Sequence record: NC_041919.1 | Source: Escherichia phage HP3 | Reading direction: 5' to 3' (one strand) | DNA length: 64,000 bases | Program-made: the position numbers and the translations under genes | The notes under the pieces: model-generated | What the model was told of the DNA's origin: nothing | Databases searched by the model: none | Seen by the model: the letters and a program-made list of their open reading frames with translations, nothing else | Shown: positions 23,968-24,985 of the stretch, piece after piece | Position numbering within the stretch: the first letter of the stretch is position 1 | Layout of the letters: each line of letters starts with the position of its first letter

Positions 23968-24040
23968 TGGGAATTAGCCAAGTTGGTAAGGCACTGGATT
24001 TTGATTCCAGGATGCAAAGGTTCGAGTCCTTTATTCCCAG
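23968..24040 (+). tRNA. tRNA-Gln (anticodon UUG)
   Basis: Manual fold: acceptor tgggaat/attccca, anticodon stem ctgga/tccag, loop ttttgat, T-loop ttcgagt. Confidence 0.8.
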
Positions 24041-24041
24041 C

Positions 24042-24128
24042 GCGAGAATGGCCAAATTGGTAAAGGCACAGCACTTAAAATGCTGCGGAATGATTTCCTT
24101 GTGGGTTCGAGTCCCACTTCTCGCACCA
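24042..24128 (+). tRNA. tRNA-Leu (anticodon UAA), long variable arm, CCA encoded
   Basis: Acceptor gcgagaa/ttctcgc, anticodon loop cttaaaa, T-arm gtgggttcgagtcccac. Confidence 0.8.
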
Positions 24129-24133
24129 AATTT

Positions 24134-24207
24134 GCGGATATCGTATAATGGTATTACCTCAGACTTCCAATCTGATGATGTGAGTTCGATTCTCATTATC
24201 CGCTCCA
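24134..24207 (+). tRNA. tRNA-Gly (anticodon UCC), CCA encoded
   Basis: Acceptor gcggata/tatccgc, anticodon stem tcaga/tctga, loop cttccaa. Confidence 0.8.
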
Positions 24208-24217
24208 ATTTAATTTA

Positions 24218-24291
24218 CTCCGTGTAGCTCAGTTTGGTAGAGCGTCTGCTTTGGGAGCAGAATGTCGTAGGTTCAAATCCTGCCACGGAGA
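24218..24291 (+). tRNA. tRNA-Pro (anticodon UGG)
   Basis: Acceptor ctccgtg/cacggag, anticodon stem tctgc/gcaga, loop tttggga. Confidence 0.8.
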
Positions 24292-24293
24292 CT

Positions 24294-24383
24294 GGAGGCG
24301 TGGCAGAGTGGTTTAATGCACCGGTCTTGAAAACCGGCAGTCGCTCCGGCGACTCATAGGTTCAAATCCTATCGCCTCCGCCA
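24294..24383 (+). tRNA. tRNA-Ser (anticodon UGA), long variable arm, CCA encoded
   Basis: Acceptor ggaggcg/cgcctcc, anticodon stem ccggt/accgg, loop cttgaaa. Confidence 0.8.
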
Positions 24384-24388
24384 GTTTT

Positions 24389-24464
24389 GCTGATTTAGCT
24401 CAGTAGGTAGAGCAACTCACTTGTAATGAGAAGGTCGGCGGTTCGATTCCGTCAATCAGCACCA
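24389..24464 (+). tRNA. tRNA-Thr (anticodon UGU), CCA encoded
   Basis: Acceptor gctgatt/aatcagc, anticodon stem actca/tgaga, loop cttgtaa. Confidence 0.8.
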
Positions 24465-24465
24465 A

Positions 24466-24540
24466 GGCCCTGTAGCTGGAAGGTTCAAGCAAGCGACTCA
24501 TAATCGCCAGATGGTGGTTCAATTCCACCCAGGGCCACCA
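24466..24540 (+). tRNA. tRNA-Ile/Met (anticodon CAU; T4 reads this as Ile after modification), CCA encoded
   Basis: Acceptor ggccctg/cagggcc, anticodon loop ctcataa, T-arm ggtggttcaattccacc. Confidence 0.75.
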
Positions 24541-24549
24541 AATTAATTT

Positions 24550-24636
24550 GGGGAGTTATCCCGTAGAGGTAGCGGTGTGGACTGTAAATTCATTGTCATT
24601 GCGACTCGGGTGGTTCGACTCCACCACTCCCCACCA
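24550..24636 (+). tRNA. tRNA-Tyr (anticodon GUA), long variable arm, CCA encoded
   Basis: Acceptor ggggagt/actcccc, anticodon loop ctgtaaa, T-arm ggtggttcgactccacc; not one of the eight T4 tRNAs. Confidence 0.6.
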
Positions 24637-24640
24637 ATTT

Positions 24641-24715
24641 GGATGTGTAGCTCAATGGCAGAGCGATCGCCTGTTAAGCGATTGGTTATAGGTTCGAATC
24701 CTATCACGTCCGCCA
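24641..24715 (+). tRNA. tRNA-Asn (anticodon GUU), CCA encoded
   Basis: Acceptor ggatgtg/cacgtcc, anticodon stem atcgc/gcgat, loop ctgttaa. Confidence 0.7.
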
Positions 24716-24829
24716 AATTTGTGACAACTGTCACATTAATATCTACTTGACGCGATTATAGGGGTTGAACTGATCACTCTTCTCTTAATTTCGTGTGAAG
24801 ACATCTTGATTGTTGGAGTAGGTATTAAT

Positions 24830-24905
24830 GTGGCCGTAGTTCAGTTGGTAGAACTCGAGATTGTGATTCTCGTAGTCATGGGTTCGACTCCCATCGGTCA
24901 CCCCA
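24830..24905 (+). tRNA. tRNA-His (anticodon GUG) with extra 5-prime G, CCA encoded
   Basis: Acceptor gtggccg/cggtcac, anticodon stem cgaga/tctcg, loop ttgtgat. Confidence 0.7.
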
Positions 24906-24909
24906 ATTA

Positions 24910-24985
24910 CGGGGCATAGCTCAGAAGGAAGAGCAAGGACCTTCTAAGTCCTAGGTCGTAGGTTCGATCCCTACTGCCTCGACCA
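24910..24985 (+). tRNA. tRNA-Arg (anticodon UCU), CCA encoded
   Basis: Acceptor cggggca/tgcctcg, anticodon stem aggac/gtcct, loop cttctaa. Confidence 0.75.

Follow-up and report, generated by a model that had tools for sequence, protein, structure and literature searches.

The tRNA Operon of Escherichia Phage HP3: A Mosaic, T2-Type Allele with a Conserved Structured RNA in the Spacer before tRNA-His

Identification of the tRNA Genes

The DNA analyzed is a stretch of 64,000 nucleotides (nt) from Escherichia phage HP3 (NC_041919.1), referred to below as the window. A cluster of tRNA genes occupies positions 23968–24985. All coordinates are positions in the window, and all of the listed features are on the + strand. 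The best overall explanation of the locus, which is held with high confidence, is a T-even tRNA operon of the T2 type that is mosaic in composition and contains a conserved folded RNA in its one long spacer. The cluster is assigned as an allele without the homing endonuclease gene segB, and it has already been sequenced and annotated.

Eleven tRNA genes are called in this interval by ARAGORN with the anticodons UUG (Gln), UAA (Leu), UCC (Gly), UGG (Pro), UGA (Ser), UGU (Thr), CAU, GUA (Tyr), GUU (Asn), GUG (His), and UCU (Arg), in that order. The same coordinates, order, and anticodons had been proposed in an earlier note on this DNA, and ARAGORN agrees on every one of them. The Rfam tRNA model finds ten of the eleven genes at 60–74 bits; the sole miss is the Tyr gene. 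The gene for tRNA-Gln (23968–24041; 67.4 bits) has no encoded CCA and abuts tRNA-Leu (24042–24128), which is identical to the T4 gene at 86 of 87 positions. These two genes are followed by tRNA-Gly (24134–24207; 74/74 identical to T4, T2, and T6), tRNA-Pro (24218–24292), which has no encoded CCA and abuts the class II tRNA-Ser (24294–24383; 90/90 identical to T2), and tRNA-Thr (24389–24464; 73/76 identical to T4). The CAU tRNA (24466–24540) is identical to the T2 gene at 75 of 75 positions and to the tRNA-Ile of T4 at 47 of 75. The class II tRNA-Tyr (24550–24636) is identical to that of T6 (87/87). tRNA-Asn (24641–24715) is identical to that of T2 (75/75), tRNA-His (24830–24905) has C73-CCA and a U at position −1, and tRNA-Arg (24910–24985) is identical to the T2 gene at 74 of 76 positions and to the T4 gene at 48 of 76. 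CCA is encoded in nine of the eleven genes, in line with the statement in the note that most of them carry it. The intergenic spacers measure 0–10 nt, except for the 114 nt at 24716–24829.

The cluster region is 100% identical to Escherichia phages HP3.1 and HP3.2 (Tequatrovirus). A total of 999 phage records match the region, 259 of them with a coverage of at least 80%. The same eleven genes are annotated in public phage records, and the cluster is therefore already known. The set had been described as the eight specificities of T4 with Tyr, Asn, and His in addition, and the T4 annotation lists those same eight. No homing endonuclease gene had been seen within the cluster; this also stands, since the sole real open reading frame (ORF) nearby (25004–25354) matches phrog_3355 and has no Pfam domain.

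After eight of the eleven tRNAs comes a trailer composed only of A and T (CCA-AAUUU, CCA-AUUU, or CCA-AUUA); Gln, Pro, and Ser depart from this. Examples are found at 24129–24133, 24541–24549, 24637–24640, 24906–24909, and 24986–24989. The shared trailer may serve as a processing signal, and it may also provide microhomology for the gain and loss of tRNA modules such as the structured RNA together with tRNA-His.

Mosaic Relationship to T4, T2, and T6

The operon has the same genomic position and orientation as that of T4 (NC_000866, 70.9–72.5 kilobases (kb)), with the trna.2/trna.3 ORFs on one side and rnaD/rnaC and the e.x genes on the other. The two flanks align with T4 at 94.6% and 91.3% identity, and the annotations of HP3.1 and T4 are collinear. 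The order in T4 is Gln-Leu-Gly-Pro-Ser-Thr-Ile, segB, Arg, rnaD, and rnaC. The genes from Gln to Thr are 85–100% identical to those of T4 and fall within a 94.6%-identical block (23800–24485) that ends inside the CAU tRNA gene; homology is back at 25354. T4 differs from the window in the presence of segB between Ile and Arg, in the absence of Tyr, Asn, His, and the structured element, in its different alleles of Ile and Arg, and in having no trna.2-type ORF past Arg.

The segment that is replaced relative to T4 (24486–25353) has the T2 form. The segB-less tRNA region of T2L was described by Brok-Volchanskaya et al. (2008, PMC2330249). T2 (T2L region, EMBL AJ880101; genome, AP018813) shares with the window the lack of segB, the CAU tRNA and Asn (75/75 each), Tyr (86/87), Arg (74/76), and the trna.2 ORF after Arg. 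It differs in carrying a trna.1 ORF where the window has tRNA-Thr and in having neither tRNA-His nor the structured element. Arg follows Asn directly in T2 (GCCAAAT/ACGAGG), whereas the junction in the window reads GCCAAATT, then the 114 nt and the His gene ending in CCCCAAT, then TACGGGG. The element and tRNA-His therefore constitute a module of about 194 base pairs (bp) that is inserted at CCAAT-type junctions. In T6, tRNA-Tyr is identical to that of the window, segB adjoins Tyr where the window has Asn, and Pro, Ser, Asn, His, and the element are absent from the part examined.

The preferred cut site of SegB lies within the gene for tRNA-Asn in T2L, RB1, and RB3, with the consensus GGTTCRANTCC...CCAR (PMC2330249); cleavage is reported to fall directly after CCAR. 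The preferred 27-bp target (GGTTCGAATCC...CCAAA) is present in the window's tRNA-Asn gene at 24691–24717 as an exact match to the published sequence. Since the window allele is without segB and retains the SegB target, a mixed infection with T4 would be expected to convert it. By alignment, the cluster is a mosaic in which Gln through Thr are T4-like; Ile2, Tyr, Asn, Arg, and the following ORF are T2-like; and the structured RNA with tRNA-His is an insertion.

Structured RNA in the 114-nt Spacer

The 114-nt gap between tRNA-Asn and tRNA-His exists as the earlier note claimed. The note had taken it to be only a spacer. Its core is a conserved three-way-junction RNA of 95 nt (24735–24829) that is apparently undescribed and that was delineated using shuffle z scores, covariation, RNAalifold, and a covariance model. 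It is preceded by a 19-nt 5′ extension (24716–24734) that folds as a small hairpin (GUGACA/UGUCAC); in the alignments this extension is present in Tequatrovirus and STP4-a and absent in Jiaodavirus.

The junction is formed by P1, a long arm consisting of P2 and P3, and P4. P1 is a closing helix of 14 bp (24735–24748 with 24816–24829), and the last base of the element, U24829, is position −1 of tRNA-His and is paired with A24735. P2 pairs 24750–24754 with 24792–24796. P3 pairs 24759–24768 with 24778–24787 and presents the apical palindrome UGAUCA at 24771–24776. P4 (24800–24803 with 24811–24814) has 4 bp and the loop UCUUGAU, which is a 7-nt UCNUGAU across versions.

The 114-nt spacer folds with a z score of −4.36 relative to shuffles, and none of 200 shuffles folds as well. 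Covariation was measured on 16 sequences, which are few and related, with partners slid by 1–3 columns and 500 shuffles as the controls. In the proposed fold 89.2% of the cells are paired, versus 36–49% after sliding. The covariation score is 0.378, versus 0.085–0.145 for the slid partners, and is reached by none of the 500 shuffles. Pairs changed on both sides number 13, versus 2–5 after sliding and 8.4 ± 1.6 in the shuffles, none of which reaches 13. For P1, 95.5% of the cells are paired and six pairs are compensated. For P4, 96.9% of the cells are paired and one pair occurs as G-C, U-A, C-G, and A-U. Support is weak for P2 and outer P3. RNAalifold independently recovers P1, P4, and the cores of the helices. 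G-U pairs are frequent in the helices (14 of 16 sequences at the closing pair of P4 and 11–12 of 16 at two others), and the fold is therefore specific to the tRNA strand.

No credible Rfam match covers the element, either in the window (E values up to 10) or in three other genera (E values up to 0.1), and no description of it was found in the literature searched. A degenerate tRNA and a known ribozyme or riboswitch were considered and rejected, with no match in Rfam or ARAGORN. The spacer was also rejected as a promoter for a second subcluster: it contains no promoter-like site on the + strand, and the spacings of TTGACG and TATTAA are unfit.

Distribution of the Structured RNA

The element is present in 354 phage records and is 77–89% identical in other genera. 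It lies directly 5′ of tRNA-His in Jiaodavirus, Karamvirus, and a Proteus phage of Gelderlandvirus, whatever lies upstream. In Jiaodavirus it fills the entire 96-nt gap from the CCA of tRNA-Gln to position +1 of tRNA-His. Chimeric and distant variants were added by pattern scans of viral and metagenome contigs; a loose 15-base pattern gave mostly chance matches, and a 20-base pattern was used for the metagenome scan.

A covariance model was built from 12 versions of the element. Each locus yields exactly one copy with this model, and T4, T2, and T6 yield none; the single copy per locus led to the rejection of paralogous elements before other tRNAs. Divergent copies are detected in Marfavirus (46–49 bits), Winklervirus (43 bits), and Citrobacter phage CkP1 (33 bits). 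The element is thus found in seven T4-like lineages, including the six named genera Tequatrovirus, Karamvirus, Jiaodavirus, Gelderlandvirus, Winklervirus, and Marfavirus, together with metagenomic relatives. An adjoining His gene is not obligatory: the element precedes an Asn tRNA in the metagenomic contig L152 and in STP4-a, and a CAU tRNA in the Marfavirus copies. One Tequatrovirus-like contig has lost the His gene, and the L145 copy of the element precedes an Arg tRNA.

Two further spacers were noted in these genomes. Between tRNA-Gln and the element, Karamvirus and Gelderlandvirus have another stretch of about 110 nt that is near-identical in the two genera (e.g., 1389–1507 of the Karamvirus stretch). 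It was rejected as a second structured RNA (z = −0.12 versus shuffles). In Klebsiella phage VLCpiM5a (Mydovirus), the 60-nt spacer before tRNA-His (341–400 of the retrieved stretch) is a simple long hairpin ending in ...AGAGAGCACUGAAAU. This end shares the motif AAGAGAG with the Winklervirus and CkP1 versions, and the spacer may be a reduced relative of the element.

tRNA-Tyr

The earlier note had rested its Tyr assignment on an anticodon stem with two G-U pairs, and this stem (GUGGA/UUCAU) was confirmed. The note had also named the Tyr, Asn, and His calls as those on which its reading could fail. All three genes are called by ARAGORN. For Tyr alone the calls diverge: it is labeled pseudo in tRNAscan-style annotations and missed by the Rfam tRNA model, and these labels are overridden by its identity to T6 tRNA-Tyr and by covariation. 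In this gene an unusual linker of 4 nt separates the acceptor stem from the D stem; the gene also has A73 and the variable arm GUC-AUUGC-GAC. Throughout the lineage a 4–5-nt linker (UAUC and variants) precedes a D stem of 4 bp, and this lineage-specific feature is the likely cause of the low model score. A73, the GUA anticodon, and a variable arm of 3 bp and 5 nt are conserved among the homologues.

Phage records with a homologue of the Tyr gene number 1267 and come from unrelated groups (T-even, Jiaodavirus, Karamvirus, rV5-like, Felix O1-like, T5-like, Sugarlandvirus, and Phapecoctavirus). The homologues were aligned by explicit parsing of the cloverleaf, as a MAFFT alignment lost the acceptor register. 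Across 12 lineages, canonical pairs occupy 288 of 288 cells, and double-sided compensatory changes are found at 16 of the 24 pairs. Homologues from Jiaodavirus (33.6 bits) and Karamvirus (39.1 bits) pass the Rfam tRNA threshold. The tRNA-Tyr of T6 was seen by northern blot, and raising its dosage rescues T6 from the Septu defense system (Chihara et al. 2026, PMC13096335). Septu cuts tRNA-Tyr in the variable arm, the T6 tRNA-Tyr included, and the rescue required an amplification driven by SegB (PMC13096335). Related phage tRNA-Tyr genes oppose retron-Eco7 (Azam et al. 2024, PMC11555353).

That the gene is a decaying pseudogene, and the cluster really one of ten working tRNAs, is extremely improbable. 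Such a reading would account for the failure to reach the Rfam gathering score, since in a permissive search the best match in the clan is tRNA-Sec at 30.9 bits against a cutoff of 47, for the labels "tRNA-OTHER / tRNA-Pseudo" in HP3.1 and pseudo "tRNA-Val" in UAB_60 (fPS-65 has "tRNA-Tyr"), for the failure of ARAGORN to find the homologues of PG7 and ESCO25, and for the nonstandard linker. It is opposed by the identity to a T6 tRNA that is detected on northern blots and rescues the phage when overexpressed, by the retention of the gene across unrelated phage families, and by the canonical state of every pair in all 12 lineages together with the conserved A73, anticodon, and long variable arm. 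Judged by the T6 identity and the covariation, tRNA-Tyr is a genuine tRNA whose expression and activity are known from the identical T6 gene.

No E. coli chromosome has a detectable match to the Tyr gene. A phage-type tRNA-Tyr with 80–95% identity is found in 273 E. coli plasmid records from 269 genomes, and these are probably phage-plasmids. In the one record examined, plasmid pEC881_2 (109 kb; retrieved stretch 2421–3247), the genes resemble those of a phage: an Asn-Tyr-Thr-Ser block lies beside genes for DNA ligase and glutaredoxin, and the PGAP label is tRNA-Tyr.

tRNA-Ile2, tRNA-His, and Other Unusual tRNAs

The CAU tRNA had been read as tRNA-Ile in the earlier note. The closest E. coli gene is annotated as tRNA-Ile and is 81.6% identical over the full length; Ile(CAU) is therefore reasonable, and "Met" is the default label of ARAGORN. 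Its body thus resembles ileX/ileY more than it does the Met tRNAs. The gene has C4-G69 and C5-G68, which are determinants for TilS. The CAU tRNA is thus reasonably assigned as a tRNA-Ile2, predicted to be of the lysidine type and to read AUA.

tRNA-His has the GUG anticodon and the C73 of a bacterial-type tRNA-His. Position −1 is encoded as U, in place of the G that is found in E. coli hisR. The same U is present in every His gene examined from this phage lineage (Jiaodavirus, Karamvirus, and others), including a Vequintavirinae gene without the element. G-1 and its 5′ phosphate are a major identity element that histidyl-tRNA synthetase (HisRS) recognizes, and RNase P retains G-1 only if it is paired with C73. 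The phage tRNA-His lineage would be either charged without G-1 or serving another role.

Two other tRNAs were noted in related genomes. A tRNA of 83–86 nt that combines a GUU (Asn) anticodon with a long, class II-like variable arm, which is unusual for tRNA-Asn, is carried by Jiaodavirus (771–855), Karamvirus (669–753), Phapecoctavirus (395–480), Marfavirus (447–529), and the L152 contig, where it lies past the element; it is annotated "tRNA-Asx" in PG7. In Salmonella phage Si3 (Felixounavirus), a tRNA beside the Tyr homologue (389–465 of the retrieved stretch) is given the four-base anticodon gtca ("tRNA-???") by ARAGORN and is a pseudo tRNA-OTHER in GenBank. It could be a frameshift-suppressor-like tRNA or a degenerate Asp tRNA.

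Codon Demand and Host Defense

The comparison of anticodons with phage and host codon usage, proposed in the earlier note as a check, was made with 79 long ORFs of the window (17.7k codons) and 40 annotated genes of E. coli K-12 (14.7k codons). Use in the phage relative to the host is 13.9-fold for AGA, 4.6-fold for AUA, 3.7-fold for AAU, 3.5-fold for ACA, 3.4-fold for UCA, 3.1-fold for GGA, 2.75-fold for UAU, 2.3-fold for UUA, 1.6-fold for CCA and CAA, and 0.98-fold for CAU. The corresponding values for amino acids are 1.95-fold for Tyr, 1.73-fold for Asn, and 0.70-fold for His; Tyr ranks first and Asn third among the amino acids enriched in the phage. Ten of the tRNAs thus read codons or serve amino acids that are used 1.6–14 times more by the AT-rich phage than by E. 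coli. Supply and demand explains ten of the eleven tRNAs, including Tyr and Asn of the three extras, and does not explain His. From this enrichment, the main function of the cluster would be to supplement the host tRNA pool in late protein synthesis. tRNA-Tyr would also replace host tRNA-Tyr destroyed by the Septu and retron-Eco7 nucleases, as shown by others on the identical T6 gene.

It has to be asked whether Tyr, Asn, and His, all with G34-U35 anticodons, are instead kept mainly as spares against tRNA-cutting defenses and toxins of the host. The four targets of colicin E5-type anticodon nucleases are the tRNAs for Tyr, His, Asn, and Asp. All four are carried by the related clusters of Jiaodavirus and Karamvirus, and tRNA-His is not explained by codon demand. 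For tRNA-Tyr the protective effect against Septu and retron-Eco7 is experimental (PMC13096335, PMC11555353). However, the overuse of Tyr and Asn by the phage makes demand sufficient for both, Septu also cuts the tRNA-Tyr that T6 and the window have in common, and the rescue of T6 needed a SegB-driven amplification, whereas the window locus is without segB. The literature searched yielded no defense system that cleaves tRNA-His or tRNA-Asn in the course of phage infection. A primary role as spares is accordingly rather doubtful, and codon supply is preferred as the main function.

Flanking Features and the Proposed Transcript

A candidate T4 middle (MotA-type) promoter (TGCTTTA, 12 nt, TATTAT) was read from the sequence at 23874–23898. 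It directly follows the stop codon of the ORF upstream and precedes tRNA-Gln by about 70 nt, in a region that is 94.6% identical to T4. It was recognized by its likeness to the MotA-box consensus; a simple sigma-70 scan gives no site above chance near these positions. No promoter- or terminator-like site was found in the scan of the + strand within 23968–24985.

The ORF of 116 amino acids past tRNA-Arg (25004–25354) is the counterpart of trna.2 of T2L (phrog_3355, E = 5e-52), and its start matches the T2 primer (PMC2330249). It has no Pfam domain and no GIY-YIG motif, and a hidden homing endonuclease was rejected for the lack of such a domain. Its stop codon adjoins the start of an rnaD (species 2) homologue at 25354–25466, which is 78.8% identical over 118 nt to T4 rnaD. 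The rnaC (species 1) homologue at 25473–25611 is 99.3% identical over 139 nt to T4 rnaC, so that rnaD is much the more diverged of the two. An intrinsic terminator with a stem of 10 bp (7 G-C pairs) and a T-run is located at 25662–25695. The site at 25662 is the best terminator-like site in the scan; the region has 3 such sites against 2.3 expected from shuffles, which is not above expectation. A late-promoter-like TATAAATA occurs at about 25690. The ORFs at 25561–26211 and 26337–26900 are neighbors that both match phrog_2280 (unknown function), and are therefore a tandem paralogue pair. With its mechanically assigned TTG start, the first reaches into rnaC; the HP3.1 annotation starts this gene at about 25738. 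The rnaD/rnaC homologues and the terminator had been overlooked in the earlier reading of this DNA, as had the T2-type alleles of Ile(CAU) and Arg, the SegB target in tRNA-Asn, and the structured RNA of the spacer.

From this layout, one transcript would run from the promoter just before tRNA-Gln through the eleven tRNAs, the small ORF, rnaD, and rnaC to the strong terminator. Host enzymes would cut it to the mature tRNAs, as in the established biology of T4: RNase P would form the 5′ ends, nucleases would trim the 3′ ends, and CCA would be added to Gln and Pro. Cotranscription and processing as a single precursor are suggested by the spacers of 0–10 nt, the absence of internal promoter- and terminator-like sites, and the T4 precedent.

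Possible Roles of the Structured RNA

The 95-nt RNA would most likely be released as a discrete small RNA by the enzymes that trim the tRNAs, as rnaC and rnaD are. These are small noncoding RNAs of the T4 tRNA operon bounded by tRNA-type processing sites. The element shares their context and size class: it lies within the tRNA operon on the tRNA strand, with tRNA ends on both sides. It differs from them in having no BLAST similarity to either and in its position between tRNAs and not at the end of the operon. A relative of rnaC or rnaD was rejected, since there is no similarity and the true homologues lie downstream.

The loop of P3 carries a self-complementary hexamer. It is UGAUCA in Tequatrovirus, Karamvirus, Jiaodavirus, and L152; UCAUGA in Gelderlandvirus, PKO111, and L147; UGUACA in Marfavirus; and UCUAGA in CkP1. 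These are all four of the possible U-S-W-W-S-A palindromes. The chance of a 6-nt palindrome is about 0.1 per loop and roughly 1e-3 jointly for the first three types, a figure that is post hoc. In the loop, two or three purine-rich unpaired bases come before the palindrome. As the simplest reading, two copies of the element might conceivably pair loop to loop through this palindrome. The dimerization initiation site of human immunodeficiency virus type 1 (HIV-1) is a kissing loop that serves retroviral dimerization. It is alike in its loop of 9–11 nt with 6 central self-complementary nt and flanking unpaired purines (AAG-UCAUGA-AC and AAG-UGUACA-GC in the element). It is unlike in that there is no evolutionary relation, the dimer of the element is only predicted, and one lineage has a palindrome of 4 nt. 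In type B the loop of P4 carries the same hexamer, UCAUGA, and is a possible intramolecular partner for the loop of P3. A P3–P4 loop–loop contact was rejected as a general feature: type B allows 6 bp, type A allows no more than 4 bp, and Marfavirus allows none.

The boldest reading of the element, held tentatively and with slightly less than even confidence, is an undescribed family of phage small RNAs in at least seven T4-like lineages. The RNA would be excised by tRNA-processing enzymes, form a homodimer or an internal loop–loop contact via a hexamer that has been rewritten four times, and travel as a cassette with the G-1-less tRNA-His. Since it travels with this tRNA, it may act in the maturation or use of tRNA-His.

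A more modest proposal is that the 114-nt stretch is a processing spacer only, with a fold that insulates the neighboring tRNAs and presents clean sites for RNase P or RNase E, and with no function as a free RNA. The element does sit flush between the 3′ CCA of one tRNA and the 5′ end of the next, with P1 closing exactly at position −1 of the latter; T2 and T4 manage without it, and the His gene of Mydovirus is preceded by a simple hairpin spacer only. On the other hand, the remaining spacers of 0–10 nt indicate that tRNAs need no insulation, and the conservation of the element across genera (77–89%) equals that of the tRNAs themselves. The junction and loop nucleotides are largely invariant in most lineages (Winklervirus and CkP1 differ), and a palindrome kept through four sequences is not needed by a passive spacer. 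This proposal is therefore considered unlikely, though it deserves some weight. Far less probable is that the conserved stretch acts as DNA, as a promoter, a protein-binding palindrome, or the target of a homing endonuclease. It contains TTGACG, the loop hexamers are palindromic in DNA too, and tRNA clusters are hot spots of SegB-type cleavage; yet there is no promoter-like site on the + strand within it, many of the G-U pairs would be A-C mismatches on the opposite strand, and paired positions compensate while the palindrome itself takes four forms, which would not be tolerated by a DNA-binding protein.

Highly improbable, too, is a leader specific to tRNA-His in which a His codon in the P3 loop pairs with the anticodon, in the manner of a T-box specifier. 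The loop sequences AUCAC (type A) and GUCAU (type B) complement the anticodon loop GUGAU; of the 11 anticodon loops, that of His matches best in each of the six variants tested; and the element is usually directly 5′ of His. The shuffle p-values are only about 0.03–0.06, however, and the palindromes UGAUCA and UCAUGA give rise to the CAC and CAU triplets incidentally. In Marfavirus the copies lie ahead of a CAU tRNA and their loops contain no His codon, the L152 copy precedes Asn and the L145 copy Arg, and the conserved UGGA mismatches the C73 discriminator. Specifier pairing was rejected on the p-values and on these contexts.

Several points weigh against the overall explanation and against the preferred reading of the element as a small RNA. 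The palindromic loop was noticed post hoc, and in Winklervirus the loop has just CGCG. Only 86% of the cells of P2 and 76% of those of outer P3 are paired, and P2 is without a compensated pair. The Tyr gene lies under the Rfam tRNA threshold and is pseudo according to some annotators. tRNA-His is outside codon demand (His 0.70-fold, CAU 0.98-fold) and has no encoded G-1, which is normally needed by E. coli HisRS. The operon structure and processing proposed for HP3 are carried over from T4.

Implications

The cluster itself is nothing new; it is a known allele of one of the oldest model loci of molecular biology. What the analysis adds is the rehabilitation of the Tyr gene, the anatomy of the mosaic and its insertions and deletions, the identification of tRNA-His as the odd one out, and the finding of a conserved, apparently undescribed structured RNA in the spacer. 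Of the public phage records examined, some mislabel tRNA-Tyr as "pseudo," which matters because tRNA-Tyr is now known as an antidefense factor. tRNA-His is singled out as the only gene that is not explained by codon demand and that is without the G-1 identity element, and it raises the concrete question of how, or whether, it is charged by E. coli HisRS. The roles of RNAC and RNAD are unknown, and for no small regulatory RNA of T4 or T4-like phages has a function been characterized (Uzan and Miller 2010, PMC3014915). After about fifty years of rnaC and rnaD without a known role, the element is a candidate for the third small RNA of the T-even tRNA operons.

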